64,000 nt of DNA from Convolutriloba macropyga (lineage: Eukaryota), in contig NC_134482.1 of the NCBI RefSeq assembly GCF_964194025.1, positions 17,794,001 through 17,858,000 on the forward strand, in the 5' to 3' direction. The notes under the pieces are model-generated. The model searched no databases. It was given only the letters and a program-made list of their open reading frames with translations, and was not told where the DNA came from. Shown here piece after piece: positions 27,764 to 64,000 of this stretch. Position 1 is the stretch's first letter. Each line of letters starts with the position of its first letter. The translations under genes were made by a program, and so were the position numbers.

Positions 27764-28104
27764 AATTATAATACTTCACATATCATTGCAACATTTGTGT
27801 TTATGCATAGTTAATTATATTCTAAACATATTTTGAAATCCCGGTCGACCGAGCCATCTTAGATCCGCGAAGGGACAAATTTTCGTGCTATTACGATAAT
27901 ACCCAAGATACCATTAACGGTCTTATGACGCTTATAAACAAATGGCGCGAAAAGTTGATCGCACCCCGAAAGAGATCAAATTCTTTGACGGATTATGGGT
28001 TGGATTATTGCAGAAGCGAATTTACTGGTCGCAATGAATTCAAAATAATAATCATCATTATTTTTCATTTTTCGTTAAATTTTAAACTTTTCATTAAAGT
28101 CTAT

Positions 28105-29388
28105 TTTTCGAAATTTTGCAATTTTTTGGCGTTCTGGCGAGCCAAACACCAAAAATACAAAAATTTTCGTGTCCCCCCTCAACCGTTGCGAACACAGTAA
28201 CACGCAAATGTCCCCCCCCCCACCGTAGCGTGCCCAATAAGACACATTTTTTTTGACCAATTGGATCTTTTTTGACGTTTTTGATGTGAATGGTTTGTTT
28301 TGGATGTTAGGTGTGAAGTAGCGCTGCTCTTTTAGTGGTTGTCATTTTGTCATTAGCTCAGGTGAGACTATTCAATGGAAAAAAGTGAAAAATTTTGAAA
28401 ATAGGAAATATTGATGTTCTAAAATTGCCTGAAATGCATTTTGCGCCGGGTTTAAAGTCGCAAAGATGATTTGTTTTGTTGACTTCATCTCACCTAGTGG
28501 GTCTCACGATCGAAAAAAATTTTGAAGTTCTAAAATTGCATGAAATGCATTTTGCGCCGGGTTTCAGGTCTCAAACATGATTTTTTTGTTGATCTCTTCT
28601 CACCTGGTGGGTCTCATCATAAAAAACTGAAAAATTTTAAAGTTCTCAGATTGCATGTAATGTATTTTGCGCCGGTTTTTAGGCGCAAAGATGATTTTTT
28701 GTGGACCTCATCTTCCCTGATGAATTTCGTCTATCGAACAAAAAACTTTTGTCTACGGAAAAGTTTTGGGAAAACTGCAAAATTTTGAAGTACTCACAAC
28801 GTTCATCTTGTTATTTCGTCAGTATATAGAATTATAAACCATATCACAAAACTTAGTCACCAATCACGGCTTACTTACTAGTTGAAAAAAAAACGTTGAG
28901 TGTTGCATTCCTCATGTCTGTTGCTATCGGTCAGTCTGCTCAAATATTTGTTTCACGATTTAATTGATCAAGCGTAAGAACAAAATATAGTAATAAGTAA
29001 GGTCAGTGGTTGCTGTTGTTGTTGCTAGAACTATCTGAGTCGCAAGTCTATTTTTAGATATAACTGTTTACTATGACTAACTCTCATGGTCACTGCCAAA
29101 ATTCATTTTACACGAGTAATCGTCGTAATCGATTGTGATTGGACGATCGATCGTCCGACAGTGTCAATGAATTATTTCGGAATAGGTTTACATGTTGAAC
29201 TGTCTGCATTGGGTGGTGTTATTATAGTTTAACAAGATACTTATATAGCAATAGAGCAGACTCATATGAAATTGTTTGAGTTTCAGTTGGAGTTTAATTT
29301 ATAAACAAATTTTGTCAGTGGTTAACGATTGTTCCTTCTTCGATTTTTCTCACGATATTACTTGCACAGAAGAACGTCATGTAGTTGC
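28105..29388 (+). repeat. Left TIR of the Maverick (outermost ~80 nt missing); contains three ~117 bp tandem units
   Basis: Reverse complement of ~39895-41160; internal unit GAAATGCATTTTGCGCCGGGTTTCAGGTCTCAAA... at ~28430, 28545 and 28660. Confidence 0.9.
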
Positions 29389-31390
29389 TTTTTTTAAAAC
29401 GACTCTACTACAATAAGGACCCCGAATTTAAGGCAATATATCATCTGTTTGTCTTGTGTTTGACCTAACAGATACATAATATTGGATTAAAGCTTGAATA
29501 CTGCCAGGAAAACATGTTGAACTTTTATCACCATGACTAATAAATTTTGTTCTCTGAAATTACTTTCAACCATCAAATGAGTGAAAACTAGAGAGACCAA
29601 CAGAAAATCAAGCTGAATTTTCAATTTTTTTCATGCAATTTTAGTAGCTTAGTAAAATATATCTAATGCAATACACAAGGTTAGACCTGTTTGAACTGTT
29701 TGAGTTTTTTTATAAGACTCATTTAACTTCACTTTTTTTGGAGCCCTACAAGAGCTGACAGGCGGCGTTTCAAGACTGCTGGTTGCCACAAGCTTAACAA
29801 ATTCGGGTGTTTTGATTACACTTGTTGTTATTGCTGTAGACGGTATTGAAGTTTCGAAGTTGATTTACCAAAAGATAGGATTTTCCAAAAGTTTTCAATG
29901 AGTTTCAAATCCTGCCAATACTTGTCCTGATTTTCGTAGATAGGTACTTCTTGAACATCGTAATCATAGGAAATTCATCTAATGTCATCTCCCAGAACGT
30001 TTGAATCAAAAGTAAACTCACGAGTATAAACCGCTACAAATTCCAGAGTATATTGAGCTGCCTTAAGTGAAGCTTTTTCAAATCTAAAAGATTGAACGAA
30101 ATCGAAAGTAACAACAGGTAATGCCATGTGTTTCAGTTTTCCTTTCTTCACCTTGATACTCTTGCTGGACGATAACAATATTCTCTTTTCAAAGTCTCGT
30201 ATGCAATTGTCCGGGTACTGGTAGATGACTTTTCTTTCAGTATGACTGCAATTGGAAACATTTCAGTAAGTCAGTGACCACTACTTCTGTTTTCACACAT
30301 ATAAACTGACTTATAATTGACTTGAATAATTTGTTAAAAATTTTTGAGCTTGAATATTTTGGTCAATATCCCAAAAAAGACACCTTTAAAAGAGTATGTT
30401 AAGAGAAATTTGAGAATATTACTGTTAACGTTATCTGAACAGTATTTATTCACAATAATTATCAAGCGCAAAATGATTTTTTTCTAACTATTAGTAATTG
30501 AGACAGAATACACAATTTGTATTTAAATTATAGGGAATTTAAAGAATCTGGTTTGAGCGTAAAGTTGAATACTGTTTTGTAGGCGTTGTGCTACTATATT
30601 TAGAAGTATCTGTGTTCTACAAAGATTAATGTACATGGACGAGAAGAATTATTTTTCAGTGTATGTAGTTCTCATGCTACATGTATTTTCCTTATCTAAA
30701 ATAATCACAGCTTTTCAAGTACTAGTGTAATCCACGCCAGTTTTTATCTTTCCGGAAAGCTATTTTTAGCATCAAAAACGAATCTTCTAGTTTGGTTGTT
30801 ATTGTTGCTACAGTACATTTTGTTCACACCCGTGGAATCAAAAGGAAAAATAGACAAGTGCGTTTTTGTTTGTGAAGACTTTCAGGAATGAGAGGTTATG
30901 TAAAATTGCTACCGTCTTACAAATGATCCAAGAGAAATATAAAAAATACTTAACCATTACTTTGGACACCTGAACTCCAGCAGACATAAATTTTGCAATC
31001 TGTTCATCTATGATTCAAATTTATTTGATTTCTTTAAGCAGAAATTTAAAACTTTGTCTAATTTTCTCAGTTTCGGTCGGTTTTAATCTCACTTAGAATG
31101 CATTTTGATATACCAATTGTTTGTAGATACTGCTTGAAAAAAATTCATGAGAAGTATTTGATATTGGCCTCAACTTACCCAATGATTTCAGCGAGACTGA
31201 ATTATTTTCTAGCAGCAAGTGAATACTTCAGTCAAACGGAGAACTTCGATTATGATAATGCTTTGAAACTTCCACCATACGGAGGAATTATTCCCTGGAA
31301 GCTTAATATTTGCTTTACTGGTCATCTGACAGGAATTCTTTTTCGCTTGTATATTAAGTTTTTTCACTCTAACATTTATCATTTGTTGGA

Positions 31391-31870
31391 ATGTTAAGCA
31401 GTAAAGCAGTTGTGTTAGACCTTGAAGGTTTCCGTCACAGGAAAGAAAAATTTATTGTCAAAGAGTTTGGTGTGTGTACTGAGGATTACAACGATTGTGT
31501 TTTGTTGTCTCCACCATCGAAATTTTCTGATTTGACAAATCCGCAGAAAACATCAATTGGTTATCTGAAAATTTACATGGCTGAAATTGGAACTCTGAAA
31601 ATTATCCTTTTATTTATCTGACTCAAATTGTTCGAAGCATTCGCTTAAGAAGCCCGAGAGTGGTTTATTACGCTAAGGTTTTTTGAAAAGACTCAACTTT
31701 TATCAGATTTACTGGACTGTCCAGTAATCGATTTAAATACTCTTGAGTGTCCTAAAATATTGTACGGTTTTTTTTTACATTTATCTGTGTGAATCATAAC
31801 TCAGCACAGCGTGGTAGCTTCAATAATCATGTGCAAGAGAAAAAGCTTGTTTCTATTTTACTGGTTGGCT
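31391..31870 (+). pseudogene. Maverick DEDD-type (RNase H fold) nuclease-like accessory gene, frameshifted
   Basis: VVLDLEGF...FIVKEFGV...SPP, then in shifted frames WLSENLHG.NWNS, YYAK, EKTQLL, VIDLNTLECP. This pattern is typical of the small nuclease carried by animal Mavericks. Confidence 0.7.
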
Positions 31871-31884
31871 AATGAGAGGAATTG

Positions 31885-32180
31885 ACGAAAGTGGAAGCAC
31901 CCTTGTCAGCGAATTCGTCCATTTGCGCCTTGATCACGAAGGAGGGGACACTGAAACTCAATTTTTAAAGGCGAAGCAGTATAAAGTGGTACTCAAATTC
32001 GTCCGAGAAAAGTTAGGGTGTTATTGACAGAGGACGAAATCCGTTCAATTACAAACTTGGTTTTCTACATCGAACCTTTTATTCAGTGGAGAAAACGAAA
32101 TGTCGGATTGTCAACGCAAAGTCCCGCCTCGGAAACTTCTATTGATATCGAAACATCCAACTGGTAAAGAAGTAGATAAA
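31885..32180 (+). pseudogene. Possible PC4-like ssDNA-binding protein remnant
   Basis: Across frameshifts: KVEAPLSANSSICALITKEGTLKLNF/LKAKQYK...REKLG/VLLTEDEIRSI, resembling the PC4 strands followed by a KGISLTxEQ helix. Confidence 0.3.
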
Positions 32181-32650
32181 AATGATGAAATGCTGCCTGA
32201 AGAAATTCAAGTGATAAAATGCTGCCTGAATAAATTGAACTCGTGAACAAGGACAAGGTCAAAAAAATTATGTACTATGAAAAAACTTCACGATTACTCG
32301 CATGTTTCATGGTGCACTTGAATGATTTTTTGAGTGATTATAGTTGTTATGAACTGTTCTATGTAAAATATTAAAAAATTACAATAAATTTTTTTACTCA
32401 TTTTTTTGTGATGGAACAAGTGACAGTTGATCAAGTTGTGCAAGGTACTCCTTTCGAAAAGGAAAGTAGTGGAAAATCTAATTGGAAGTTCTGTAATCAG
32501 ATAACGTTACCACGGTCGGAAGGTGTTTTTTTGTTCAAATGTTTGTAATTTTGATGCTAATAGTTCTTTGCATTGTGAAATTGACTGTGCTTAAACCAAC
32601 TTGTGAGAAAACATCAGTTTGGATTTCGATTCTGTGGAGTTTAGTTGGAT

Positions 32651-32861
32651 ATACCTTTCCAGACCCTCGATTATGAACAAAATAATCCCTAACAGTGACA
32701 GAATTTTTATGGCCGTGGTAAGTCCATCGGGTTGTGATGAAACAAATTTAATTTTCAGAATAATAGCAGGAAACTCCTTTTATCCAAAGTTTAAAAATGT
32801 TATTTTTCTCTACCACGAAATGCAACCAATATACTCACAAGTTGACCCGCATTTATACTGA
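32651..32861 (+). pseudogene. Maverick A32/FtsK-like packaging ATPase, truncated N-terminal remnant
   Basis: MAVVSPSGCDETNLI is a decayed Walker A (GPSGCGKT), followed by VIFLYHEMQPIY; the Walker B half is deleted. Confidence 0.75.
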
Positions 32862-32876
32862 AGCGAATGGTACTTT

Positions 32877-33860
32877 TATCTGATTCTGAGTCGAGGAAAT
32901 TTCTCCGCACTTCCGATGACAATATTGTATTGGTACTGTTAATGTTTTTTGCAACGTCATCAGAGGACATGTGAACGTGATTAAGACTGTTCTTCGTTAA
33001 ATTGTTTCGGTTCGTTATTCAGTTCGGTTCATTGATTTAGTTCGGCTCATCATTCATTTTTGCTACCAGTATTTGAGTCAATCATAAAAGAGAGAATGAC
33101 AACTGCTGAGGAGTTCATTTTAAATCCCAAAAAAGTCTATATGAAAACTCAACCACAGCAAACCCTGGTCATAGAATATCCTGACGTTAAACAAAAATCG
33201 TCACAGCTGTCTATTATAAATAGAGTGCGATCAAAGGAACACAATGAAGCACATATCAATGCAAACCTGTCGGAACAAGACTCTGGCGTTGATGTTGACA
33301 AAAATTGGGTCAGAAATTCAAATAGACGGGCAGATCAAGTCCTAAAAACATTATCATCGCTTTTGTCTCATTCAAAATACTTAAAGTGTGATTATATTGT
33401 AGATCTAATTAAAATGTCTAATCGTGTTCTCATTGGCGAAGACGAGAAGTTACTCATTTACAACAGTCCAAATGACATAAACGCATTCGCTTTCGTGTAC
33501 AATTTACAGCAACCAACAAAGAAAATTGAGAGTCCTGTTTATTTTGATTTATTAAAAGTGTTACAAATAAAGAAGGAACAAGAAATTAACAGCAATGCTA
33601 ATACTTCGATCAGGAAAAAATTCTACAAAAACCGCAACAAAAAGAAAAAAGTCGAGAGATTACATAAAAGAAAAGAGTTCAAAGTTTCAAAAGCCCAAAG
33701 AACAAAGACGACCAGACAGCAAAGGCGAAATCATCGAAGACGAACGCATCAGTTACAAAAAAGAAGAGGAACGAAGATGAAAGCATCAGTTACGAAAAAG
33801 AAGAGGAACGTTTCGAAACTCCGTACGAAGCAAGTGTACAGAAGGAAAAAGAATAGGAAT
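32877..33860 (+). pseudogene. Two conserved Maverick ORFs of unknown function between the ATPase and integrase
   Basis: RKFLRTSDDNIVLVLL/CNVIRGHVNV...FLLPVF resembles the small ICECxxNVLxGNV protein. MTTAEEFILNPKKVY... starts the next gene (N-terminal part of ORF 33060-34277). Confidence 0.45.
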
Positions 33861-34789
33861 CCTACGACTAGTGAAGAAAAATTGCTGCAGTCGATGTACA
33901 CAAAAGGTCCAGCTGCGTTTGGAAGCGTTCAAAATTTACAAAAAAGCATAAACTTGCAGCCTCGCAAAGTGAAACAGCTTCTAGCGAACAAAAATGCTCG
34001 AACAAAATATAAAGGGTTTCGAAAAAATTTTGCACCTCTGAATGTTATTGCATATGACATTGATGAAATTTGTTCCCTTAACTTGGCACATGTGTACAAA
34101 CTTTTAACACAAAACGCAGGTTTTAAGTACTTATTGATTGCTATTGACTGTCTTTCACGCTATCTACGTGTTGAACCGCTCGAATCAAAATATGCAACAA
34201 CAACAGCCGAAGCCTTCAAACAAATGATTAAACACAAACAGCCCAAAAAAGTTTGGGTTGATGCTAGAACAGTTTGAAAACTCTGTCAGAAGAAAGATAT
34301 AGAAATTTATCAAACTTTCAGCGAAAAGAAGTCTGCTTTTGCTGAAAGGAACATCCGCTCTTTAAAGAACATTATTTATAAGGATCTGGAAGAAAATTGG
34401 ACATATTCATACATCTCTCAGTTGAAAAATTTTGTACAAACAATAAACTCACGCATTAACAGTATAACCAAAATTGCTCCGAACAAAGTCACCAAAAACA
34501 CGTTCCATATCTGTTATCATTAAGCTTAATTGCGTCCGAGAAACTAGTTAGTGGACCAAAATTTCGAATTGGAGATTTTGTTAGAATATCAAAAGTTGAT
34601 TTACACTTCCGAAAAGGTTATAAACAGACTTTTTCCAACGAAGTGTTTGAAGTTTACGATATTCCATCGATAAACCCTTCAACATACAGCCTAATTGATT
34701 CGACTCAGAATCCAATCAGTGGCAAGTTCTATCAGTTGGAATTAGTGAAAGTTGTTGGCAATAGCGAAGCGTTCATAAAGCATGAATGA
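33860..34789 (+). pseudogene. Maverick retroviral-like (rve) integrase, frameshifted
   Basis: YTKGPAAFGSVQNL, FKYLLIAIDCLSRY, PKKVWVD; after the frameshift KSAFAERNIRSLK, INSRIN, PKFRIGDFVRISK, FRKGYKQTFSNEVF, ISGKFYQLEL. The first catalytic Asp appears as N (SLNLA). Confidence 0.92.
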
Positions 34790-35221
34790 GTTCACCATAC
34801 ATTTAGCTTCATCACCTTCCATGAGCATCTTTCCATAGAATACTTTGGCCAACTTAAAAAACATTCTTAATGAATTCAGCCTTGAAGGTGATTGGAGAGT
34901 GGCTTTGAGTGAAATTATGTTCCCATCCAGAATCAACCAGATTAATAGCACTCGAATCATAAAGTATTTTTCCGAAGGTATCAAAAACCATCAGAGAAGT
35001 ATTCCATTTGGTGCTGTCTCGAAACCATACAATGGTGAGACAGTTTTAATCAGCGCTGGAAGCTTTGAGAACTTATAAAAGCCATCAAAACAGCGACTGG
35101 TCTAACTAAATGCAGTCATCAGTATATTGAGGCTCAGTTGAGAACCGAAACTGGCAAATTTGTTCCATTTACGGGAACAGGAAAAGCTATTCTGACTTTA
35201 AACTTAGGAAAATATAATTAA
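34782..35221 (+). pseudogene. Maverick minor capsid protein (penton), internally deleted
   Basis: MNEFTIHLASSPSMSIFP*NTLAN...LEGDWRVALSEIMFP at the N-terminus and IEAQLRTETGKFVPFTGTGKAILTL at the C-terminus. Confidence 0.85.
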
Positions 35222-35640
35222 ATGGAAGCGTACTATCAACAACAATCAGTTTCACCATACTTTGCGGGACACTATCGGCAACGAGGTAGTCGGTTCGGGG
35301 CTTTAGCGGCTGGAATTGGTAGGGCGGCCATACCGATAGCCAAAAAATTTGTGTGGCCTGTTGCTAAAAAGATTGGAAAAGAACTGTTTGTACAAGAGGA
35401 ACCAGAGATTGTTGACGTTGTCGCCGAAAAGAAGAGTCCTAAAGAAGCACTTAAATCATATTTTCAGAAAACGGTAAAGAAGCAAGTTGGTGGCTCAAGA
35501 GCTCGAATAGGAGGTGTTCGTGGTGGCAATGTTCTTAAAAAAAACAGATACGGAGCGGTCCTGTCAAATCCCGAAAAATCATTCAGAGAAAACAACCGTT
35601 ACTGGGAAGTCGGTCAGATTTTTGTTCCAAAGTCAAAAAT
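35222..35640 (+). pseudogene. Maverick virion core/maturation protein with adenain-type Gly cleavage motifs
   Basis: MEAYYQQQ...FAGHYRQRGSRFGALAAGIGRAAIP...KQVGG followed by a basic tail; sits between the minor and major capsid genes. Confidence 0.75.
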
Positions 35641-36608
35641 GAATACTAACTTATTGCCAGCAGAGGCAACACACACAACTCCAGACCTGTTTGAAAAATA
35701 GCCTCTCCTTATTACCTTTGACAATGCTTTTACACAAAAGGCTGGTCCATCATATTCACCGGATGGTCCAATGCTGGAATTTGAAGTTGTTGGCGACAGG
35801 AACAACTTTATTGATTTGCAAAAATTTCTACTTGAAATAAAATGCAAAATCACGAGAACCAATGACGCCGATTTGAGAACAGGTGCTGATGCAACGAACA
35901 CAGATTTGCCGTATTTTAGCAAAAACGCACTGCATTCTCTGTTTTCAGAGTGTACAGTCTCGTCAGGCGGTGAAATTGTCAAATACAAACGGCAACTACG
36001 CACACAAGGCTTTCATAGAAACAGAGTTCTCATCCGGAAAAACAGCCGAGAACACTTGGTTAGTCTTTCAAGGCTATTATGAAGACGAACCGGCTAAAAT
36101 TTATGGAGCTGACAACAGCTCTACTGAAGTTGCTGCACGAAAAGGTTTTGCTGACTCTCTGGAATTTTTTCTCCTTGGAAAATCGGCCAGTGATATATTG
36201 AACTGTGACAAACATCTCAGTGGTGTTACCCTAAGCATCTCCTTCAGAAGGTCACCAAATGATTTTACCGTCATATCCGAATCTATACAGAGTAAAAATT
36301 GTTGAAGCAAATCTTTACGTGCGCAAAATTACCGTGGCTGACCATGTTTTGTCTGCGATTGAAAAAACTTTGCTTAAAACACCAGCTTTCTACTGGTACA
36401 CGGAGGTTACTTCAACACGGGAGGCTTCACACGATTTCATTCATCCTGAATTTACGAATTGTTCAATTTCAGTGGAGCTCACTTTTGGAATTCCTTTGGG
36501 TGACAACGTTGAAGTTTTATTCCTAGGGGAACGAAGTTCAAATTTTACGTCAACTCTGAACGAAAAGTTACAAGAAACTCGTTTATTACATATCCGGTTG
36601 ATGGATAA
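35639..36608 (+). pseudogene. Maverick major capsid protein (double jelly-roll), with stops, frameshifts and an internal deletion
   Basis: DLFEK, GPMLEFEVVGDRNNFIDL, NALHSLFSEC, NYAHKAFIET, KIVEANLYVRK, SISVELTFGIPL; the segment between YWYTEV and the C-terminal strands is missing. Confidence 0.88.
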
Positions 36609-37027
36609 TTTTGAGATAAGTTATCTAGTAAGTATATGTTTTCATCTGAAGCACAAGTTTTTCGGAGTTTTGCAGCTAATAATTTTCCAAGACTGCCAGT
36701 TAATTGTTTTGTTGTGGTCAATGCCTCAATTTTAACATCATCGGGTAGTCATTGGCTACTGATTTGTAACTAAAAAAAAACAATTTACTTTGCTGATCCA
36801 CTTGGGCAGGCACTGGATTGCTACCATTTTGTATACACTCGACTGCTGCAGTTCTACTTCGAAGAAGAGGTTGTTAAATTTCTCAGATTACAGCCAATTC
36901 AGAACACAAATTCAAAACTTTGAACTCTTTTGTATTTATTTTCCTCATTATTTTTACATATAGCTATCCATATAAACACTACATGAATGATGATGATTTA
37001 CTACGATTTGCTAAGCATATAGTGTAA
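36601..37027 (+). pseudogene. Maverick adenain-like cysteine protease, copy 1
   Basis: FFGVFAANNFP, VVNAS...GSHWLL, YFADPLG, IQNTNSKL[CG lost]LFCIYF; the His-Asp-Gln-Cys layout is recognisable, with frameshifts. Confidence 0.88.
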
Positions 37028-37192
37028 TAAAAATAAATAACTTAATTTTTTCAGTAACAATTGTTTTATAAATCAGATGTATTTTTTCCTTTGAAGCTAG
37101 ATGGCTCGGTTTTTTTCTTTATTGTTGGAAAAGTTGGATTAATTTTTTTAATTCAAATCGGTAGTTAATTTTTACACTATCATTATCAGCTT

Positions 37193-37744
37193 TCAGACAG
37201 CCATATCTACTATTAATAATATCAATAATTTTTGAGAGTTTGCAAATGAACTGTTCTGATAAATTTTTAAAAATCGATTAAAAGTACAAGTTGGTAGAAA
37301 ATCAGTTTGCACATGAACATTCTCTTTGATAGTTTCCAGTTCCAAAACATTTGGAAGTTTTCTTTTAGAGCTAAATAAATCTAGCTGATGTTGGTGATTA
37401 TAAATGACTGCTTGCTCCAATTTCTCAAAAATTTCACCGTGAAGAGTGACGTTGATAGATTGTGATTTGTGCAGTAGAAGTCTGAAGCATGTGTATAGGC
37501 AAGAAATCGAATAGAGCTTTGAAGCAACTTTTTTGAGACTATCTGTTACTTGATCCAAAGCTGCAATAACATGATAATGTTCTTATTTTATTTCATAAAG
37601 GTTGTTATTCTCATGCAAACTGTAAGCAAAACTGTTGTTGATTTCTTTATCAAGTATTGGCTCAGTGCTGCAGATAAAATAGTGAAGTTACTATGGAAAC
37701 TGTCGAAAGAACTCAGGTGTTCGTTCAAACATAGCCTCAACCAT
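37193..37744 (-). pseudogene. Maverick accessory ORF with an HUH-like motif, copy 1
   Basis: One frame from ATG 37744 with in-frame stops: MVEAMFERTPEFF...FAYSLHENNNLYEIK*EHYHVIAAL...; continues into ORF 37193-37558. Confidence 0.45.
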
Positions 37745-38372
37745 TACTAATAATGTGTGTCGCTCTCAGCACTTCTCTTCGCTTTCTTTTTTGGTCGATC
37801 AACAACCTGAGTTGATTTATTTCGCCAAGAAAACTTGGTTAGTTTGTCAAGGCTATTATAATGAAGACGAACCGGCTAAAATTTATGGCGCTGACAACAG
37901 AGCAACTGATGTTGCTGCACGAAAAGTTTTTGCTGACTCTCTGGAAAACCGGCCAGTGATATATTGAACTGTGACAAACATCTCAGTGGTGTTACCCTAC
38001 GCATCTCCTTCAAAAGGTCACCAAATGATTTTGCCGTCATATCGGCATCTATACAGAGTAAGTATTGTTGAAGCAAATCTTTACGTGCGCAAAATGACCG
38101 TGGCTGACCATGTTTTGTCTGCGATTGAAAAAACTTTGCTTAAAACACCAGCTGTCTACTGGTACACGGAGGTTACTTCAACACCGGAGGCTTCGCACGA
38201 TTTCATTCATCCTGAATTAACAAATTGTTCAATTTCAGTGGAGCTCACTCTTGGAATTCCTTTGGGTGACAGCGTTGAAGTTTTATTCCTAGGGGAACGA
38301 TGTTCAACTTTTTGCGTCAACTCTGAACGAAAGGTTACAAAAAACATTACTAAAAAATTACATAACCGGTTG

Positions 38373-38795
38373 ATGGATAATTTTGAGATAAATTATCTTG
38401 TAAGTAAATGTTTTCATCTGAAGCACAAGTTTTGCGGAGTTTTTGCAGCTAATAATTTTCCAAGACTGCCAGATAGCTGCTTTGCTGTGGTCAATGCCTC
38501 AATATCAACATCATCGGGTAGTCATTGGCTACTGATTTAAAAAAAAAACAATATACTTTGCTGATCCACTTGGGGAAGCACTGGATTGCTACCATTTTGT
38601 ATACACTCGACTGCTGCAGTTCTACTTCGAAGAAAAGGTTTTTCAATTCCTCAGATTACAGCCAATTCAGAACACAAACTCAAAACTTTGAACTCTTTTG
38701 TATTTATTTTGCTCATTATTTTTACATATAGCTATCCATATAAACACTACATGAATGATGATGATTTACTACGATTTGCTAAGCATATAATGTAA
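38373..38795 (+). pseudogene. Maverick cysteine protease, copy 2
   Basis: MDNFEINYLVSKCFHLKHKFCGVFAANNFPRLPDSCFAVVNASISTSSGSHWLLI, then a frameshift. Confidence 0.85.
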
Positions 38796-38962
38796 TATAA
38801 AACAATAATTTAATTTTTTTTTCAGTAACAACTCTTTTTATAAATTAGTTGTATTTTTTCCTTTGGAGCTAGATGGCTTGGTTTTTTCTTTTTTGTTGAA
38901 AAAGCTAGATTAATTTTTTAATTCAAATCGAAAGTTAATTTTTACACTATCATTATTAGCAA

Positions 38963-39525
38963 TCAGACACCCATATCCACTAATAATAATATCAATAATG
39001 TTTGAGAGTTCTGCATATGAACTGTTCTGATAAATTTATAAAAATCGATTAAAAGTACAAGTTGGTAGAAAATCAGTTTGCACATGAACATTCTCTTTGA
39101 CTCTTTGATAGTTTCCAGTTCCAAAACATTTGGAAGTTTTCTTTTAGAGCCATATAAATCTAGCTGATGTTGGTGTTTATAAATGACTGCTTGCTCCAAT
39201 TTCTCAAAAATTTCACCGTGAAGAGTGACGTTGATAGATTGTGATTTATGCAGTCGAAGTCTGAAGCATGTGAATAGGCAAGGAATCGAATAGGGCTTTG
39301 AAGCATTTTTTTGAAACTATCTGTTACTTGATTCAAAGCTGCAATAACATGATAATGTTGTTATTTTATTTAATAAAGGTTGTTATTCTCATGCAAACTG
39401 TAAGCAAAACTGTTTTTGATTTCTTTATCAAATATTGGCTCAGTGCTGCTGATAAAATAGTGAAATTACTTTGGAAACTGTCGAAAGAACTCAGGTGTTC
39501 GTTCAAACATAGCCTCAACTATTAC
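38963..39525 (-). pseudogene. HUH-like accessory ORF, copy 2
   Basis: FAYSLHENNNLY*IK*QHYHVIAAL (HYH at 39349-39357); duplicate of 37193-37744. Confidence 0.4.
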
Positions 39526-39586
39526 TAATACTGTGTGTCGATCTCAGCACTTTTCTTCGCTTTTTTGATCAATCAACAACCTGAAT

Positions 39587-39971
39587 TTATTTATTTCTAT
39601 TTGTATCCGACGAGAAAGCGAGATGATAACGTCGTTTTCTTCCCGTTGTCTTATTCCCTTCTTTTTTCGTAGATTCCTCTGACTCTCCAGTCTTTATTAT
39701 TTCACAGAGTGTTTTGTAGCTTTGACTTAATTGTTCAATCTCAGCTAAAGATAGTGTAATTGTCTGGTTGAACTTGAAACCACTGTTTTCTTTTGTTATT
39801 GTTTTTATTGTCTTGGATTGTATCACGGAAGTTATCCTTTTTGAAAATTGTTACCGTTATATATGTCCCAGTAGTGTCGTAAGTTTTTACACATGCAGCT
39901 ACTTGACGTTTTTCTGCGCAGGTAATATCGTGAGAAAAATCGAAGAAGGAACAATCGTTAACCACTGACAT
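39587..39971 (-). pseudogene. Possible PC4-like protein whose start lies inside the right TIR
   Basis: MSVVNDCSFFDFSHDITCAEKRQVAACVKTYDTTGTYITVTIFKK / FKFNQTITLSLAEIEQLSQSY; beta-rich region followed by an ITLSxxE helix and a basic tail. Confidence 0.35.
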
Positions 39972-41239
39972 AATTTGTTTATAATTTAAACTCCAACTGA
40001 AACTCAAACAATTTCTTATGAGTCTGCTCTATTGCTATATAAGTATCTTGTTAAACTATAATAACACCACCCAATGCAGACAGTTCAACATGTAAACCTA
40101 TTCCGAAATAATTCGTTGACACTCGGACGATCGATCGTCCAAGCACAATCGATTACGACGATTACTCGTGTAAAATGAATTTTGGCAGTTACCATAAAAG
40201 TTAGTCATAGTATACAGTTAATTCTAAAAATAGACTGGTGACTCAGATAGTTCTAGCGACAACAACAGCAACCTCTCATCAGCAAATATTTGAGCAGACT
40301 GACTGATAGCAACAGAAATGAGGAATACAACAAAGACTCTACGTTTTTGTTTCAACTAGTTAGTAAGCCGTGATTGATGACTAAGTTTTGTGATATGGGT
40401 TATAATTCTATATACTGAGGAAATAACAAGATGAACGTTGTGAGTACTGCAAAATTTTGAAGTTTTCCAAGTTTTTTGTTCGATAGACGAAATTCATCAG
40501 TTAAGATGAGGTCCACAAAAAATAATCTTTGCGACCTGAAACGCTGGGCAAAATACATTTCCTGCAATTTTCATACCTAAAAATTTTCATATTTTTACTA
40601 CATTTTCAAAGTTGTTTTCGATGAGACCCACAAGGTGAGATAAGGTCAACAAAAAAAATCATGTTTGAGACCTGAAACCCGGCGCAAAATACATTTCATG
40701 CAATTTTAAAACTTAAAAATTTTCAAATTTTTGCAAAATTTTCCAAAGTTTTTTTCGATGATGAGGCCCACTAGGTGAGATGAGGTCAACAAAAAATCAT
40801 CTTTGAGACTTGAAACACGGCGCAAATTGCATTTCATGCAATTTTAGAACATCAAGATTTTTCAAAATTTTTCTTTTCAAATATTTTTTCATTTAATAGT
40901 CTCACCTGAGCTAATGACAAGATGACAACCACTAAAAGAGCAGCGCTACTTCACACTTAACATCCAGAACAAACCATTCACACCAAAAACGTCAAAAAGG
41001 ATCCAATCGGTCAAAAAAATGTGTGTTACTGGGCACGCTACGGGGGGTGATATTTGGGTATTACTGTGTTCGCAATGGGGGGAACACGAATTTTTTTTGT
41101 ATTTTTTGGCGGTTGGCCTGCCAAAACGCCAAAAAATTGCCAAAATTTCAAAAAAAAATTTTCGTATCCCCCCGTTGCGAACACAGTAACATCCAAATGT
41201 CCCCCACCCGTTGCGTGCCCAGTAAGACACCTTACTACT
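39895..41239 (-). repeat. Right TIR of the Maverick with intact AGTAGT terminus and terminal fold-back
   Basis: Inverted copy of the left TIR; 41021-41090 and 41161-41230 are inverted repeats of each other; ends in TACTACT at 41239. Confidence 0.9.
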
Positions 41240-53232: not shown

Positions 53233-53679
53233 ATGAATTTACCCTGTTCGAGTATGACCCACGCCAGAAGTGCAACCATTATCATCGTAGTTCTGAAAGG
53301 AAAACTTGACGATCAGGAAAACTGTTCCGAGTTGACCTCGCTGAACTTCAACGAACCGGAAGCGGATTGCGTGAAAACAGTCAAGATTGGTCGAAGTGAA
53401 AACGCGAGTGATGATTTATTCATAACTATTGCACATGATGCCGTTTCTCAATTGCACTGTCAGCTCAATTTTAGATGTCAAGGTGTGGTTGAAGTCGAAG
53501 ATGCGAGTTTTGAGGTCATCGACAAAAGCAGAAATGGCGTTCTGGTTAGCGGTCAAAGGGTCACGAAAAATGTGCCGTGTTCTGTCAAGTTTGGGGAGAA
53601 AATTTTGATTGCCAAAAGGTCAACAGATGATTGTGTTTGGCTGAAAGTTACGAGAGATGTGCCAGTTCCTTCAACTGAG
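53233..53679 (+). CDS. FHA domain-containing protein, first or early exon (rest not visible)
   Basis: VKIGRS...VSQLHC...VIDKSRNGVLVSG...GEKILI gives the FHA GR, SxxH and NG motifs; GAG|GTAAAA donor at 53679/53680. Confidence 0.8.
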
Positions 53680-53791
53680 GTAAAATGTGTTTTCTGAAAT
53701 TACACTATTGAAAACTGTGATTGAGGCTATTAGCGGTGAACGCAAATTAAACCGACGTAAAAGTAAGCCGAACGTTATGTGAAAGTCATAT

Positions 53792-53814
53792 NNNNNNNNN
53801 NNNNNNNNNNNNNN
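53792..53814. other. Assembly gap (23 N)
   Basis: Run of N. Confidence 1.
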
Positions 53815-53847
53815 CCCAATGCGTGCCCAGTAAGACACCTTACTACT
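53815..53847. mobile_element. Terminus of a second Maverick of the same family, abutting the gap
   Basis: TGCGTGCCCAGTAAGACACCTTACTACT is identical to 41212-41239; followed by CATATC, with CATAT directly before the gap. Confidence 0.85.
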
Positions 53848-54458
53848 CATATCTTTCAGAAATAATTATTGTTGACCGTTACAACCAGGACAGCGTATAG
53901 TATTTGCGATTTATAATGTATTATAGTTCCTCAAAGAAACAAAAATAAGGTCATTTTGAGTGATCAAGTGAATGCAAGCCTCAGTGGATCACTGTCCAAG
54001 GCGATGCCTCTCATCTGCAGTGAGATGTAATCCGGAAATCGTGGCGGAGCCCGCGCACTGGCCGACTTCGGACATTATGATGCGGCTATCTCGAAAATTT
54101 TCAGCTTACTTGTCCTCTTTCTTCAAATTAAACGATTAAACGAAATTGTTTTGAATAACTGGAACACAAATGGTCATATAAGATATAATTCGTTTGGATG
54201 ACTTTGAAGTTTAGAGAATGGTGTTCCATTGAAAAATTTTTGCGCTTTTTAACCTAATATTTGTTGCAGAAAAACAAATTTTGAGGAGTACTGGTTTTTA
54301 TTTCTTCACATTTTTTCAATTTATTTTTCACCATTCCTTTAAAACCTGACAAGCACCATTTTTTCCAGTCACGCAAACAGAAATCTGCGATTTTTGTTTG
54401 CAAGTGTCTCAGGTTTGAATTCAAGTTTTCAGCTCTTCGGTTTCTTGATCAGCTTTTT

Positions 54459-57300
54459 TTGTTCAAGAACCCCCGCTTTACGAAACAAATTTTGATTTCT
54501 GATAGCATGTACAAATCAGTTTGTCAAAATGACATTAGGAATGCGCATATCCATTCATATCATTTAACAACAATTAAAGACCTGAACAACATTGTCAACA
54601 ATAATGCGTCATCGGCTAAAGCAGAATATTTGATAGTTCAGAATGGACATAATTCATTTGCCAGGCGAAGAGGCTGCAAACAGGAAGTTATGCCATATCG
54701 ACTAGCGATTTGCAAATCGCAAAATGTGAAGAATGGTACATTTGGGCGGCAAAGTAACAATGCTAATATTCATAAACTTAAAACTGCGCGTTGAATGACA
54801 TTGAAGATGGATTACCAGGCGAATTCCAAAACACTGACATTAAATTTTTTTTACTACAATTAGGACAAAGCAGATATTTGAATGCTTGGCATTCATCCAA
54901 ACACAAGCGGAACCCAAAAAAGTGTTCAGGATTAACTATATGTCAAGTGCGAGGTATCAGCCTGCTGGGTGCAATGTGTGTCCGTGAGACAAATGAAAAA
55001 GCGATTAAACGTAATGTTATGAATAACGTGAACAGAATTGGTCATATAGGCCATAACGCGCTTCGGTTACTTTAAATTTTAATGAAGGTTTCTCCATAGA
55101 AAATTGTTGGGCTTTTCTACCTAATATTTTTTGCAGAGAAGAAAAGCCTCAACTGTTTTCGGAAAATCCACAGCAACTTCATTTACAGCAATTTTAAAGA
55201 GTCTCAAAAATAAGTTTAAAAAATAATGTGTAGGGTTTGGATTCTTAAATTTTATATACCAACTACTAATTATTTATGTTATCTTATTTTACTTTGTGGT
55301 GACGTCAAACCTAACCCAGTGCTCAATCTTGGGAACATCCAAACAATCAATAGTTACGTGAAATAGTTTGATAACCTAATTCGTATCCTAAGTGTTTTAT
55401 CTCAACATGCAGAGTGTCAATTGCAAACACGAAGAACTCAAGTTTTTTACAACAAGACAAACAAACGTGCTTGATAGTTACCCAAGCTTGGATAAACGAT
55501 AAGATATTACACTGAATTTTTTAATAAATAAGCATCGTTTCATTCATCAAAGTATGTCAAAGTTGACACATTTGTCGAGGGGCGTTGGAGACGTTATATG
55601 GTTACCAAAAACTTTCAAATATAATGCCAGTTGCGATCTCAACTCAATTAACAGAAGTTTTTTGAATGGTTGTTTTGAAGTACAAGAAACATGTAAAGAA
55701 AAACTCCTAATTAACTTTTATTGTTCTAATAAAGTTTGGGTGGATTTTTTCTTGATGAATTGACGTCAGAAATTTCAGGTTTATATTCAGTAACAGTTAA
55801 CATATTATATTGTTCGGAGACTACAATTTAGATTACCTTCAACAAAAAGGAGAACAAGTTTTAACAGAGTTTGATTCCAACAATGGGTTAGATATCGTAA
55901 TCACAAATCAACCACAAATGGAATTGCTGAAACTATAACTCATCACGCTTAACCTCCCAAAAATTATATTTTTTGTGCAATAATATTGGAGCCAATTTTT
56001 GGAAAAGATCATTTTCTCACAATTATTATTTTCGTCTTTGGAACTTGGTAATAAAAAAAAGTATAGTGCAATAGTTTGAGATACCCGAATTTTTTCTAGA
56101 GTTGAATACAATGAAAGATTAGCATCAACAGATTAGAGACAAATGTGTCCATAATACGATGCAAATTTCACATTTCAGTTCTCTCATGTTTGTTCAAAAT
56201 GTATTGAACAGTTTAGCTCTATAAAGATTGAAAATGAAGTCCAAAGGAAATAAAGTGAATATCTTGAGCGCTATTGAAATTTATTGACGAAAAACATCAT
56301 TTGTTTAACGTTTGGAAGAAGAAGGCAAATGTTTCTGCTTATTATACATACACAATCAAAATTGCCATCTGAAATAAATCGTCGACTGACTCTGTTATTT
56401 CATTTACTGAATCAATAAAAAACTTTTAGAAAATGAAACCGTTATTGGTATGTTTTAGATTTAGCAAAAGCTTTAAACTCAATTTCGCACAAAGTTTTGA
56501 AAAAGCAAAGTATGGTTTGGGCAATGAATCGAAAACTATGCTAGGAATAATTTATTCAGATTGGGTGACAATAAACCATGGAGTCCCTAAGGTAGCAGTC
56601 CTTGAGACCCTGATTTTTGTACTGTATATAAACGATTTGTCGGAAACTATGAAGAGCTGAGAATTTTTACAATTCGCAAATGACACGTATTGAATCTCAC
56701 CCGTCACGGATCTGGAACTTCCATCGAAAATTGTTGATGTTTTTTTAAAACATATATTTACATGGAACAGAATATGTTAACACTGAACAGAGATAAAACG
56801 GCAGTAATTGTTTTTCCAAAAGAGTCAGCATCACAGTGAGCAATTCATTTTAATGGTAATATCATGACACCGAAAGTCAGTTGTCGTTATGTCACCTCAA
56901 TGATTGACAACAAATTGTTATTTGACGCAGCGGTAAGCAAAATGTTGACAAAAAATGCATTTTTTAACGATATAAATTTACTTAGTACGACACCTGATAT
57001 CGTTACACGAAAAAAATATACTTTTTAAATCACTAGTACTGTCATCTTTCAATTTTAGAGCAATTTTTTCTCCTATCCTTGCCAACTTCATCACATCAGA
57101 GAATAATTACGCAACTCTTTGAGGTATTAAGGTTTGACATATGCGTAGAAAAGTTTGATAGCGCATAAATTTGATAGAGAAAATTTTATCTCTGGAGCTC
57201 TTCATCGAAAAAACATTTTGTGTGGAGAAATTTTGAGTAGAGAAGTTTTTTTGGATGAAAAGCTATGCAAGGGGAATTTTTTCCCGCTTTTGTCGATTGT
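54459..57300 (+). mobile_element. Decayed non-LTR retrotransposon (CR1/L2 group): SGNH esterase ORF1, 2A-like peptide, APE endonuclease, RT
   Basis: ILISDSM...TIKDL...LIVQNGHN (SGNH blocks); LLCGDVKPNP; FYLNMQS, VTQAWI, FGDYNLD (APE); LDLAKALNSISH, HGVPKVAVLETLIFVLYINDL, QFANDT (RT). Confidence 0.82.
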
Positions 57301-60300
57301 TTATACCCTCAATTTATTTGCCTGTTTATTCTCTGGGGCTATTTAGCTGGCACGGATTGGAGAATGATTGCGCTATAGTTAAAGTGCGACAAGACTAGTG
57401 GTTCAAAAACTGCAATGCTTGCTTGTAACGGTATTAGTGGTCTCACTAAGGGCATTGATCTAATAGCAGTCCCCATTTTTGTCAACGTTTTGTTTTGCTC
57501 TGCGTCATTATTCAATTTGTTGTCAATCAGTAGGTTCAGATAGCGACAACTGACCTTCTGTTTTATAATGTTTACGTTAAAAGTTCTCGTTTTCTATTTT
57601 ATTGAAGCATTACGGAGAAAGCAGTCAAGTGTCCGACAAGACCTCGTTCAAATTTTTGGGAAAATATGAGATGGGGGAAAACTGCCGAACGGTCCATTTT
57701 ATCCAAACAAAATGTGTCAATCTAAGTGGAGTGAGTGATCAATAATCAGAAATTTCACCTACCAATATAATTCCGGAAAGAAAAAACAAAAAAAAACAAT
57801 TTGAAGAATTTAATTAGAGAAATGATCAAAATACACAAACTTGCCCGATAGATAAACAAGTACAGGGTTTTGGAATTTATTTCTACTGTTAATATAAAGA
57901 TTAGCATCAACAGATTAGAGACAAATGTGTCCATAATACGATGAAAATTTCACATTTCAGTTCTCTCAGGTTTGTTCAAAATGTATTGAACAGTTTAGCT
58001 CTATAAAGATTGAAAATGAAGTCCAAAGGAAATAAAGTGAATATCTTGAGCGCTATTGAAATTTATTGACGAAAAACATCATTTGTTTAACGTTTGGAAG
58101 AAGAAGGCAAATGTTTCTGCTTATTATACATACACAATAATCAAAATTGCCATCTGAAATAAATCGTCGACTGACTCTGTTATTTCATTCACTCAATCAA
58201 TAAAAAACTTTTAGAAAATGAAACCGTTATTGGTATGTTTTAGATTTAGCAAAAGCTTTAAACTCAATTTAGCACAATTTTTTGAAAAAGCAAAGTATGG
58301 TTTGGGCAATGAATCGAAAACTATGCTAGGAATAATTTATTCAGATTGGGTGACAATAAACCATGGAGTCCCTAAGGTAGCAGTCCTTGAGACCCTGATC
58401 TTTGTACTGTATATAAACGATTTGTCGGAAACTATGAAGAGCGGAGAATTTTTACAATTCGCAAATGACACGTATTGAATCTCACCCGTCACGGATCTGG
58501 AACTTCCATCGAAAATTGTTGATGTTTTTTTAAAACATATATTTACATTGAACAGAATATGTTAACACTGAACAGAGATAAAACGGCAGTAATTGTTTTT
58601 CCAAAAGAGTCAGCATCACAGTGAGCAATTCATTTTAATGGTAATATCATGACACCGAAAGTCAGTTGTCGTTATGTCACCTCAATGATTGACAACAAAT
58701 TGTTATTTGACGCAGCGCTAAGCAAAATGTTGACAAAAAATGCATTTTTTAACGATATAAATTTACTTAGTACGACACCTGATATCGTTACACGAAAAAA
58801 ATATACTTTTTAAATCACTAGTACTGTCAGATTTCAATTTTAGAGCAATTTTTTCTCCGATCCTTGCCAACTTCATCACATCAGAGAATAATTACGCAAA
58901 TCTTTGAGGTATTAAGGTTTGACATATGCGTAGAAAAGTTTGATAGCGCATAAATTTGATAGAGAAAATTTTATCTCTGGAGCTCTTCATCGAAAAAACA
59001 TTTTGTGTGGAGAAATTTTGAGTAGAGAAGTTTTTTTGGATGAAAAGCTATGCAAGGGAAATTTTTTCCCGCTTTTGTCGAACGTTTATACCCCCAATTT
59101 ATTTGCCTGTTTATTCTCTGGAGCTATTTAGCTGGCACGGATTGGAGAATGATTGCGCTATAGTTAAAGTGCGACAAGACTAGTGGTTCAAAAACTGCAA
59201 TGCTTGCTTGTAACGGTATTAGTGGTCTTACTAAGGGCATTGATCTAATAGCAGTCCCCATTTTTGTCAACGTTTTGTTTTGCTCTGCGTCATTATTCAA
59301 TTTGTTGTCAATCAGTAGGTTCAGATAGCGACAACTGACCTTCTGTTTTATAATGTTTACGTTAAAAGTTCTTGTTTTCTATTTTATTGAAGCATTACGG
59401 AGAAAGCAGTCAAGTGTCCGACAAGACCTCGTTCAAATTTTTGGGAAAATATGAGATGGGGGAAAACTGCCGAACGGTCCATTTTATCCAAACAAAATGT
59501 GTCAATCTAAGTGGAGTGAGTGATCAATAATCAGAAATTTCACCTACCAATATAATTCCGGAAAGAAAAAACAAAAAAAAACAATTTGAAGAATTTAATT
59601 AGAGAAATGATCAAAATACACAAACTTGCCCGATCGATAAACAAGTACAGGGTTTTAGAATTTATTTCTACTGTTAATATAAAGATTAGCATCAACAGAT
59701 TAGAGACAAATGTGTCCATAATACGATGCAAATTTCACATTTCAGTTCTCTCAGGTTTGTTCAAAATGTATTGAATAGTTTAGCTCTATAAAGATTGAAA
59801 ATGAAGTCCAAAGGAAATAAAGTGAATATCGTGAGCGCTATTGAAATTTATTGACGAAAAACATCATTTGTTTAACGTTTGGAAGAAGAAGGCAAATGTT
59901 TCTGCTTATTATACATACACAATAATCAAAATTGCCATCTGAAATAAATCGTCGACTGACTCTGTTATTTCATTTACTGAATCAATAAAAAACTTTTAGA
60001 AAATGAAACCGTTATTGGTATGTTTTAGATTTAGCAAAAGCTTTAAACTCAATTTCGCACAAAGTTTTGAAAAAGCAAAGTATGGTTTGGGCAATGAATC
60101 GAAAACTATGCTAGGAATAATTTATTCAGATTGGGTGACAATAAACCATGGAGTCCCTAAGGTAGCAGTCCTTGAGACCCTGATTTTTGTACTGTATATA
60201 AACGATTTGTCGGAAACTATGAAGAGCGGAGAATTTTTACAATTCGCAAATGACACGTATTGAATCTCACCCGTCACGGATCTGGAACTTCCATCGAAAA

Positions 60301-63257
60301 TTGTTGATGTTTTTTTAAAACATATATTTACATGGAACAGAATATGTTAACACTGAACAGAGATAAAACGGCAGTAATTGTTTTTCCAAAAGAGTCAGCA
60401 TCACAGTGAGCAATTCATTTTAATGGTAATATCATGACACCGAAAGTCAGTTGTCGTTATGTCACCTCAATGATTGACAACAAATTGTTATTTGACGCAG
60501 CGCTAAGCAAAATGTTGACAAAAAAATGCATTTTTTAACGATATAAATTTACTTAGTACGACACCTGATATCGTTACACGAAAAAAATATACTTTTTAAA
60601 TCACTAGTACTGTCAGATTTCAATTTTAGAGCAATTTTTTCTCCGATCCTTGCCAACTTCATCACATCAGAGAATAATTACGCAAATCTTTGAGGTATTA
60701 AGGTTTGACATATGCGTAGAAAAGTTTGATAGCGCATAAATTTGATAGAGAAAATTTTATCTCTGGAGCTCTTCATCGAAAAAACATTTTGTGTGGAGAA
60801 ATTTTGAGTAGAGAAGTTTTTTTGGATGAAAAGCTATGCAAGGGAAATTTTTTCCCGCTTTTGTCGAACGTTTATACCCCCAATTTATTTGCCTGTTTAT
60901 TCTCTGGAGCTATTTAGCTGGCACGGATTGGAGAATGATTGCGCTATAGTTAAAGTGCGACAAGACTAGTGGTTCAAAAACTGCAATGCTTGCTTGTAAC
61001 GGTATTAGTGGTCTTACTAAGGGCATTGATCTAATAGCAGTCCCCATTTTTGTCAACGTTTTGTTTTGCTCTGCGTCATTATTCAATTTGTTGTCAATCA
61101 GTAGGTTCAGATAGCGACAACTGACCTTCTGTTTTATAATGTTTACGTTAAAAGTTCTCGTTTTCTATTTTATTGAAGCATTACGGAGAAAGCAGTCAAG
61201 TGTCCGACAAGACCTCGTTCAAATTTTTGGGAAAATATGAGATGGGGGAAAACTGCCGAACGGTCCATTTTATCCAAACAAAATGTGTCAATCTAAGTGG
61301 AGTGAGTGATCAATAATCAGAAATTTCACCTACCAATATAATTCCGGAAAGAAAAAACAAAAAAAAAAAACAATTTGAAGAATTTAATTAGAGAAATGAT
61401 CAAAATACACAAACTTGCCCGATCGATAAACAAGTACAGGGTTTTAGAATTTATTTCTACTGTTAATATAAAGATTAGCATCAACAGATTAGAGACAAAT
61501 GTGTCCATAATACGATGCAAATTTCACATTTCAGTTCTCTCAGGTTTGTTCAAAATGTATTGAATAGTTTAGCTCTATAAAGATTGAAAATGAAGTCCAA
61601 AGGAAATAAAGTGAATATCGTGAGCGCTATTGAAATTTATTGACGAAAAACATCATTTGTTTAACGTTTGGAAGAAGAAGGCAAATGTTTCTGCTTATTA
61701 TACATACACAATAATCAAAATTGCCATCTGAAATAAATCGTCGACTGACTCTGTTATTTCATTTACTGAATCAATAAAAAACTTTTAGAAAATGAAACCG
61801 TTATTGGTATGTTTTAGATTTAGCAAAAGCTTTAAACTCAATTTCGCACAAAGTTTTGAAAAAGCAAAGTATGGTTTGGGCAATGAATCGAAAACTATGC
61901 TAGGAATAATTTATTCAGATTGGGTGACAATAAACCATGGAGTCCCTAAGGTAGCAGTCCTTGAGACCCTGATTTTTGTACTGTATATAAACGATTTGTC
62001 GGAAACTATGAAGAGCGGAGAATTTTTACAATTCGCAAATGACACGTATTGAATCTCACCCGTCACGGATCTGGAACTTCCATCGAAAATTGTTGATGTT
62101 TTTTTAAAACATATATTTACATGGAACAGAATATGTTAACACTGAACAGAGATAAAACGGCAGTAATTGTTTTTCCAAAAGAGTCAGCATCACAGTGAGC
62201 AATTCATTTTAATGGTAATATCATGACACCGAAAGTCAGTTGTCGTTATGTCACCTCAATGATTGACAACAAATTGTTATTTGACGCAGCGCTATGCAAA
62301 ATGTTGACAAAAAATGCATTTTTTAACGATATAAATTTACTTAGTACGACACCTGATATCGTTACACGAAAAAAATATACTTTTTAAATCACTAGTACTG
62401 TCAGATTTCAATTTTAGAGCAATTTTTTCTCCAATCCTTGCCAACTTCATCACATCAGAAAATAATTACGCAAATCTTTGAGGTATTAAGGTTTGACAGA
62501 TGCGTAGAAAAGTTTGATAGCGCATAAATTTGATAGAGAAAATTTTATCTCTAGAGCTCTTCATCGAAAAAACATTTTGTGTGGAGAAATTTTGAGTAGA
62601 GAAGTTTTTTTGGATGAAAAGCTATGCAAGGGAAATTTTTTCCCGCTTTTGTCGAACGTTTATACCCCCAATTTATTTGCCTGTTTATTCTCTGGGGCTA
62701 TTTAGCTGGCACGGATTGGAGAATGATTGCGCTATAGTTAAAGTGCGACAAGACTAGTGGTTCAAAAACTGCAATACTTGCTTGTAACGGTATTAGTGGT
62801 CTTACTAAGGGCATTGATCTAATAGCAGTCCCCATTTTTGTCAACGTTTTGTTTTGCTCTGCGTCATTATTCAATTTGTTGTCAATCAGTAGGTTCAGAT
62901 AGCGACAACTGACCTTCTGTTTTATAATGTTTACGTTAAAAGTTCTCGTTTTCTATTTTATTGAAGCATTACGGAGAAAGCAGTCAAGTGTCCGACAAGA
63001 CCTCGTTCAAATTTTTGGGAAAATATGAGATGGGGGAAAACTGCCGAACGGTCCATTTTATCCAAACAAAATGTGTCAATCTAAGTGGAGTGAGTGATCA
63101 ATAATCAGAAATTGCACCTACCAATATAATTCCGGAAAGAAAAAACAAAAAAAAACAATTTGAAGAATTTAATTAGAGAAATGATCAAAATACACAAACT
63201 TGCCCGATAGATAAACAAGTACAGGGTTTTAGAATTTATTTCTACTGTTAATATAAG
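56114..63257 (+). repeat. Tandem array of four ~1.79 kb units (LINE RT half plus 3' flank)
   Basis: AAAGATTAGCATCAACAGATT recurs at 56114, 57896, 59681 and 61470; the array ends near 63257; only scattered SNPs and homopolymer indels differ. Confidence 0.97.
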
Positions 63258-64000
63258 GACCAAACTTTTCATTTGTTTATTAAATGAATCTTAAAATGTA
63301 AATGTTTCACCAAACTTTTTGTTATGGTTTTGATCATTTAGGTTTTCTAGATTTAACAAAATGATCAGAAATTTTTTGTCTTATTTCTGTTCATCTGATA
63401 TATTAACCGTACTTAGTACCAACGCGTAGGACAGAACCTTCATCGTAATTTCAATTGTTAACGTAAATTAATAGTGAATCTAATTATGCATATCGCATTT
63501 TTAATGTTTTTGTGCTTGGAGTTGCACTGTATGTACTGGTGTTATAATTGTTCTATCAAAATTGTAAGGCATCTTGTAGAAATGATTTTTGGATTCAAGA
63601 AACCCTTTTTAGGGCTCTTACAATTGAATTGTTTCGAATTCTCAGTCGAATGTAGAATTAATTTCTCGGCATGATGAACAACTAGTCGTCCACGAAGCCT
63701 TCGGCATAAATGAAAACTTAGCTTTGTTCTGATGTTCTACTTTTTTCGGAAGATTAATCCACGTTTTGATTTCATACCTAGTGCAGAGGTTTTTCATTTT
63801 TGGTGAATTTTTTGTTCTTGTTAACTCTTAGATATCAAGTCATCAATGATAGTACAATTAATCAATTAATGTGCAAATTGTCGAAAACAAGAAGCAAGAA
63901 TAAGCTTTTTTTTCTGAGCAAGAAATGTCTCCTTGCAAAATAAAGAAATTTTATTTTGATAACTGCAAGAGTAATTTTCCTCCGAATATTCTAGTTTTTG

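Follow-up and report, generated by a model that had tools for sequence, protein, structure and literature searches.

The question raised by this locus is what lies behind a run of 23 N close to the 5' end of an intron in a CHFR-like gene. We analysed a 64-kb stretch of DNA (the window), in which positions 53792-53814 form the only run of N. A preliminary description of the same DNA had reported this 23-N gap. That description placed the gap in the intron of an FHA gene and proposed that it probably hides a second, whole Maverick, the copy being recent, possibly intact or heterozygous, and collapsed in the assembly. The features on which our answer is based are collected in Table 1.

Table 1. 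Features of the gap site, its host gene and the neighbouring element
Feature	Position	Strand	Remark
Target duplication, left copy	53787..53791	+	CATAT visible, sixth base possibly hidden
23-N spacer	53792..53814	.	represents left end and interior of the insertion; length probably nominal
Outermost 33 nt of Maverick TIR, ending in ACTACT	53815..53847	+	31/33 identical to 41207-41239
Target duplication, right copy	53848..53853	+	CATATC
CHFR-like gene, exon 1, coding part (FHA domain)	53233..53679	+	149/149 aa identical to P0226
CHFR-like gene, intron 1, at least 10.3 kb in the assembly	53680..64000	+	GT donor at 53680
Decayed Maverick, same family as the gap copy	28104..41239	+	TIRs, broken rve integrase, broken capsid
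Subterminal hairpin, right TIR, ~210 nt	41021..41230	+	DNA fold
Broken rve integrase in the decayed Maverick	~33.8-34.8 kb		
Double jelly-roll capsid of the decayed Maverick, broken	35.6-36.6 kb		partly repeated at 37.8-38.3 kb

The two edges of the gap are asymmetric, with no element bases on the left and 33 nt on the right. The 28 nt at 53820-53847 recur exactly in the window once, at 41212, and no further copy of the terminus was found even when a 20-mer was searched with 5 mismatches allowed. A blastn comparison within the window aligned the gap terminus with the element end at 41239 over 33 columns (97%, E 9e-8). The terminus had been described as identical to 41212-41239; this is true of its last 28 nt, but further in, among the 5 nt nearest the gap, positions 53818 and 53819 are mismatches to the corresponding bases of the 41239 end. 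ACTACT at 53842-53847 agrees with the Maverick end motif (AGT)2//(ACT)2, of which one end is visible. Because both ends of such an element carry the same repeat, the orientation of the interior is not given by these 33 nt. Outside the element, CATAT is present on both sides, where the chance of such a 5-mer at a fixed place is 0.001-0.002. These flanks had been read as a 6-bp target duplication, but the visible bases fit a duplication of 5 bp as well as one of 6 bp with one base hidden, the range reported for the class being 5-8 bp. The ACTACT end and the CATAT match nevertheless support the earlier view that a Maverick-family terminus with a target duplication stands at the gap. Searched as exact strings, the terminus had no match among metagenome and viral contigs, nor did the left flank among metagenome contigs. 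The excess depth in bin 53500-54003 would amount to ~280-300x the flank if it fell wholly on the 33-nt terminus; other repeats may contribute, and we do not take it as a copy number.

The insertion site is 112 nt inside intron 1 of the CHFR-like gene. The exon upstream corresponds to residues 1-149 of P0226, a protein of 728 aa (gene LOC142354111) that NCBI names from the acoel Convolutriloba macropyga and that carries Pfam FHA, RING and zf-CRD domains, the order of domains in CHFR. The end of this exon and the GT that follows it bear out the placement of the gap in an intron of the FHA gene. Residues 150-728 of P0226 (exon 2 onward) gave no match in a tblastn search of the window, and the only one of 573 seven-residue words from this remainder to match the window did so upstream and on the opposite strand, which was taken as chance. 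Since the rest of P0226 is absent from the window, the gap lies within an intron of at least 10.3 kb. Candidate positions for exon 2 at 53860 and 53950 were rejected, as P0226 continues with residues that the window lacks. Among the read contigs (described below), contig 31 of the spliced run X5 exits the window at 53679, and the bin depth excludes read-through to the gap.

Several other features surround the site. A 1-nt deletion at 53648, in the CHFR-like coding exon, is present in 2-3 contigs in each of runs X1-X3, and contigs of all three runs end at 53678; an allele with a frameshift, a paralogous copy or an effect of alignment edges may underlie both. Deeper in intron 1, 56087-63259 is made up of about four tandem 1785-nt units that are 98-99% identical; within every unit, positions 761-1495 hold an inverted pair (67%), and the array resembles a foldback or MITE-like element that was amplified in tandem. 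Upstream of the CHFR-like exon, 51484-52995 is an extremely high-copy repeat whose summed contig depth is 1e5-2e6 in X1-X3 and 4e4-5e4 in X5. The window also contains a host Piezo gene (7946-27763), whose coding exons are very long, two open frames measuring 913 and 1370 aa, and, at 48123-50662, a gene that encodes an ELMO domain and is interrupted by an intron at 49300-50003.

The reference for the terminus is the decayed neighbour. Its TIRs, each ~1.3 kb, occupy 28104-29400 and 39883-41239 (inverted match to 41155) and have diverged by 100 mismatches in 1208 columns (8.3%). The left TIR is without its outer 84 nt; the outer hairpin arm and the terminus are lost from this side (28104-28248), and a copy of the right-hand target GATATA was not found near the left end. 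A DNA fold of 41000-41239, in the right TIR, has a predicted energy of -83.7 kcal/mol (z -14.8), with 0/200 shuffles equally stable, and the counterpart of the 33 nt seen at the gap is the end of the outer arm of this hairpin together with the last 9 nt. The integrase remnant matches Pfam rve with an E value of 0.006. Its relatives P0003 and P0016, 73-83% identical to the remnant, match rve with E ~1e-6 at 27.9 and 28.9 bits, below the Pfam cut-off of 32.6, and it is through the neighbour that the rve integrase of a Maverick family is found here. For the region 33096-34786, P0003, P0268, P0270 and P0271 (561 aa) fuse the upstream gene and the integrase in one open frame; other relatives are separate proteins of ~250 and 300-320 aa.

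P0106 is 79-93% identical to the capsid fragments at 35.6-36.6 kb. A model of this protein (pLDDT 89.7) matches the capsids of Sputnik, iridovirus, mavirus and PBCV-1 with E values of 2e-15 to 2e-13, and it is by way of this model that the family is assigned a double jelly-roll capsid, the Atlas matches leading to Preplasmiviricota; a single-sequence fold of P0106 reached a pLDDT of 29 only. No relative of the capsid was found in viral contigs, a PDB sequence search with capsid alignment A1 gave 0 matches, and a Pfam capsid family matched only 3/60 members of the larger capsid cluster. A 1.78-kb tandem duplication at 36045-39597 (91% identity) in the decayed element covers the C-terminal part of the capsid, and in both copies residues ~264-373 of the 441-aa relative are missing. 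Six frames of 29400-39801, in which the stops of this decayed copy were read as X, gave no Pfam match to pPolB, and 29400-33002 gave no PHROG match. Because the copy is decayed, loss or erosion of pPolB in the neighbour is inseparable from its absence throughout the family. Neither Pfam, PHROG nor Atlas (one 94-aa ORF) supported an HUH protein in the neighbour, and degenerate motifs seen by eye, presumably those of a packaging ATPase and a cysteine protease, gave no profile match.

Since the (ACT)2 end motif is accompanied by the integrase and capsid of the neighbour's family, the gap terminus can be identified as a Maverick terminus. Judged by end motif and family, the gap copy, whose gene content is hidden, belongs with the Mavericks/Polintons and is an ordinary member of a known element class. 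In the part of the vertebrate survey of Barreat and Katzourakis (2021; PMC8097293) available to us, (ACT)2 is the commonest Maverick end motif and 96% of copies are defective. The acoel family resembles those Mavericks in its (AGT)2//(ACT)2 ends and 5-6 bp target duplication, in its long TIR (~1.3 kb in the neighbour; 46-1447 bp reported) and in having an rve integrase and a double jelly-roll capsid. It differs from them in its host, an acoel and not a vertebrate, and in the strong ~210-nt subterminal hairpin of its TIR, which the same part of the survey does not mention. The nematode Polintons (Jeong et al., bioRxiv 10.1101/2023.08.22.554363), as far as the available portion describes them, are alike in belonging to a 13-25 kb class, in a target duplication of 5-8 bp and in the capsid family, and are unlike in that no pPolB could be placed in the acoel neighbour; the word HUH is absent from the main text of that preprint. 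Polintons hidden by assembly gaps are a known nuisance. In Anolis carolinensis, according to the excerpt of the report available, such gaps left most copies incomplete (PMC3014272), the difference being that seven copies are given there, whereas the acoel capsid clusters hold 60 and 48 sequences. In a literature search, no paper joining acoel and Maverick terms was found among the matches listed.

Evidence for an empty allele comes from read contigs. The runs compared on 40900-56000 were the DNA-like X1, X2 and X3, together with X5; X4 shares its sample with X1 and was not used. X5 carries the label 'DNA?'; the sole ground for treating it as RNA-like is that 49300-50003, a segment with GT..AG ends, is missing from its contig 29. 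Records from the high-copy repeat at 51.5-53 kb dominated the comparison, which draws on the contig pieces listed. In 3/3 DNA-like runs, all of one study, a contig has its first base exactly at 53847. The left flank has a T before CATAT and the terminus also ends in T; because this T is common to both, an empty and a filled allele are predicted to merge at 53847, not at 53848. A locus that was only filled predicts a start at ~53818 with 31-mers as the word size of the contigs, and one that was only empty predicts no break. The depth of the contig starting at 53847 is 5.3 in X1 against 2.1-2.8 in neighbouring zero-difference contigs (~2x), 75 in X2 against 31-45 in several neighbours (~2x), and 54 in X3 against 45-57, a comparison that does not discriminate. 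The twofold depth in X1 and X2 fits a merge of two alleles. From this merge the insertion is probably hemizygous, i.e. on one homologue, and the heterozygous state that had been suggested thereby gains ground. That a member of this Maverick family was inserted at the gap site and that an empty allele exists beside it appears to us very likely.

The contig boundaries also call for some caution. X1-X3 belong to one study, have variants in common and are not independent, and one of them is possibly from the window's own sample. Among the 24 records listed, three starts and one end are common to X1-X3, the boundaries 50853 and 53678 included, and two of the four are unrelated to element ends. The start at 53847 could also arise from a fork at 53877. 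Convolutriloba macropyga reproduces both asexually and sexually, with an estimated heterozygosity of 3.65% in the accessible part of its genome report (PMC13650328). X1-X3 also have a contig start at 41238, which falls two bases short of where the decayed neighbour ends; it suggests that this copy too, old as it is (8.3% TIR mismatch), is present in single dose, a state that heterozygosity kept up over long asexual periods would permit. Because the decayed neighbour shows a similar signature, a single dose is not evidence of youth, and the step from hemizygosity to a recent or intact copy is not supported.

How much depends on this one copy can be judged from the family as a whole. Its capsids fall into two clusters, those of P0106 and P0107, with 60 and 48 sequences, possibly drawn from several assemblies or haplotypes, and NCBI names the capsid relatives 'F54H12.2-like', F54H12.2 being a nematode Maverick capsid gene. 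Capsids of the full 441 aa make up 6/15 and 9/15 of the members listed for the two clusters (15/30 in total), and the other members listed (9/15 and 6/15, or 15/30) are shorter. The full-length capsids of the two clusters are 96.1-99.8% identical; by these sequences, near-identical partner copies for a purging match exist in the family. It had been argued that the gap copy is the one that could settle the pPolB, HUH and hairpin questions. With 15/30 of the capsids listed at full length in other copies, it is not special, nor is it uniquely decisive, since the 41239 end carries the hairpin and other assembled copies offer gene content.

The length of the gap offers a clue to its origin. The program purge_dups presumably joins contig pieces with 23 N after it has cut out an internal duplication. 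A link of 23 N to purge_dups or to any other tool was not found in the literature; Bionano was rejected as the source of the spacer, the literature examined mentioning 13-N gaps only. As set out in the available part of the purge_dups paper (Guan et al. 2020, PMC7203741), the assembly is aligned to itself by minimap2 asm5, matches of fewer than 10,000 matched bases are dropped, only matches at sub-diploid depth on both sides are kept, and the matching interval leaves the shorter contig. That part of the paper does not state the length of the spacer, presumably 23 N. A published assembly of Convolutriloba macropyga, which may or may not be the window's own, used purge_dups (PMC13650328, in the part available). 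That four copies of a 1785-nt repeat, 98-99% identical, are kept apart in the window points to a long-read contig. Two single-dose, near-identical Mavericks at different loci would qualify for removal by purge_dups. Under asm5-like scoring, the extension against the 41239 end stops after 3/33 nt, at most 3 nt from the gap edge, and under three laxer scorings it runs to the end; the partner in this test was the decayed neighbour, not a real partner copy.

The best reading overall, and in our judgement a fairly probable one, is that a long copy was assembled and then excised as a false haplotypic duplication, so that 'collapsed', the word used for it before, is probably inexact. Taken separately, the size of the hidden insertion is likely to be at least 10 kb, given the purge_dups threshold and the presumed 23-N spacer, and its removal in silico by purging is slightly favoured. 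On this excision reading, a Maverick of the neighbour's family would have been integrated in intron 1 by its rve integrase, presumably by the staggered cleavage and subsequent repair known from this class, with duplication of 5-6 bp of target. The insertion would have been on one homologue only and carried by the long-read contig; a purging step would then have matched it to a near-identical single-dose copy elsewhere, cut it and left a fixed 23-N spacer. On the left the cut would coincide with the boundary of homology; on the right it would come ~33 nt too soon, beside the two mismatches. The hidden piece would then measure at least about 10 kb and be young, and in the host one allele would probably have a longer intron whose donor site is unaffected. 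The threshold favours a length of at least 10 kb, not intactness. Long need not mean intact, because the 13-kb neighbour is decayed and 15/30 of the capsids listed are below 441 aa, and we doubt that all core genes, including pPolB, are open in the hidden copy.

An unlikely but appreciable alternative is that the hemizygous insertion is real while the 23 N are an ordinary contig or scaffold gap of default length, behind which an insertion of any size might lie, the likeliest being a non-autonomous derivative with internal deletions, between a few hundred bases and a few kb long. The sequence and the contig merge fit such a gap equally well, and the literature search found no printed source for a 23-N rule; moreover, no pPolB was detected in the 13-kb neighbour, and the capsids listed include 9/15 and 6/15 below 441 aa. 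What speaks for excision instead is the shape of the gap edges. A graph break between two alleles would be expected at 53847 and not 33 nt into the terminus, while one at a locus that was only filled should leave terminus on both sides, so that the asymmetry is better explained by a cut at an alignment edge.

Two further explanations dispense with a long hidden element. The N may mask 23 real bases one for one, the insertion being a palindromic remnant of 55-56 bp, produced when the element was excised almost precisely between its inverted repeats. The sum 23 + 33 gives 55 or 56 bp by arithmetic only, the termini are inverted and prone to hairpins, and a merge at 53847 would still be expected; we see no reason, however, why the left arm should be masked and its reverse complement on the right spared, and a long-read consensus does not normally emit N, which makes this remnant improbable. 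It is more improbable still that a library adapter was masked or a mis-join made, so that sequences which are not adjacent meet at the gap and CATAT stands on both sides by chance. A 23-bp adapter remnant has been reported in another long-read assembly (PMC10287147, in the part available), and none of the contig pieces listed bridges the gap site. Against a mis-join stand the chance of the 5-mer match, only 0.001-0.002 as given above, and the T shared before CATAT, which correctly predicts a contig start at 53847 and not at 53848.

By itself, the locus adds one more intronic Maverick insertion, with its interior hidden, and a young Maverick family is shown in an acoel. If the 23-N scar is a purging cut, such scars would allow a cheap genome-wide count of single-dose insertions dropped from assemblies, and the dropped copies would bias estimates of the number of intact Mavericks. 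As a tentative and rather doubtful extension, haplotig purging might selectively delete the youngest, single-dose and most complete Mavericks in heterozygous animals, leaving as its scar 23 N, a target duplication and a stub of the terminus. Should this be true, surveys undercount intact Mavericks, and this acoel would have an active, high-copy, long-hairpin family that is largely missing from its primary assembly.
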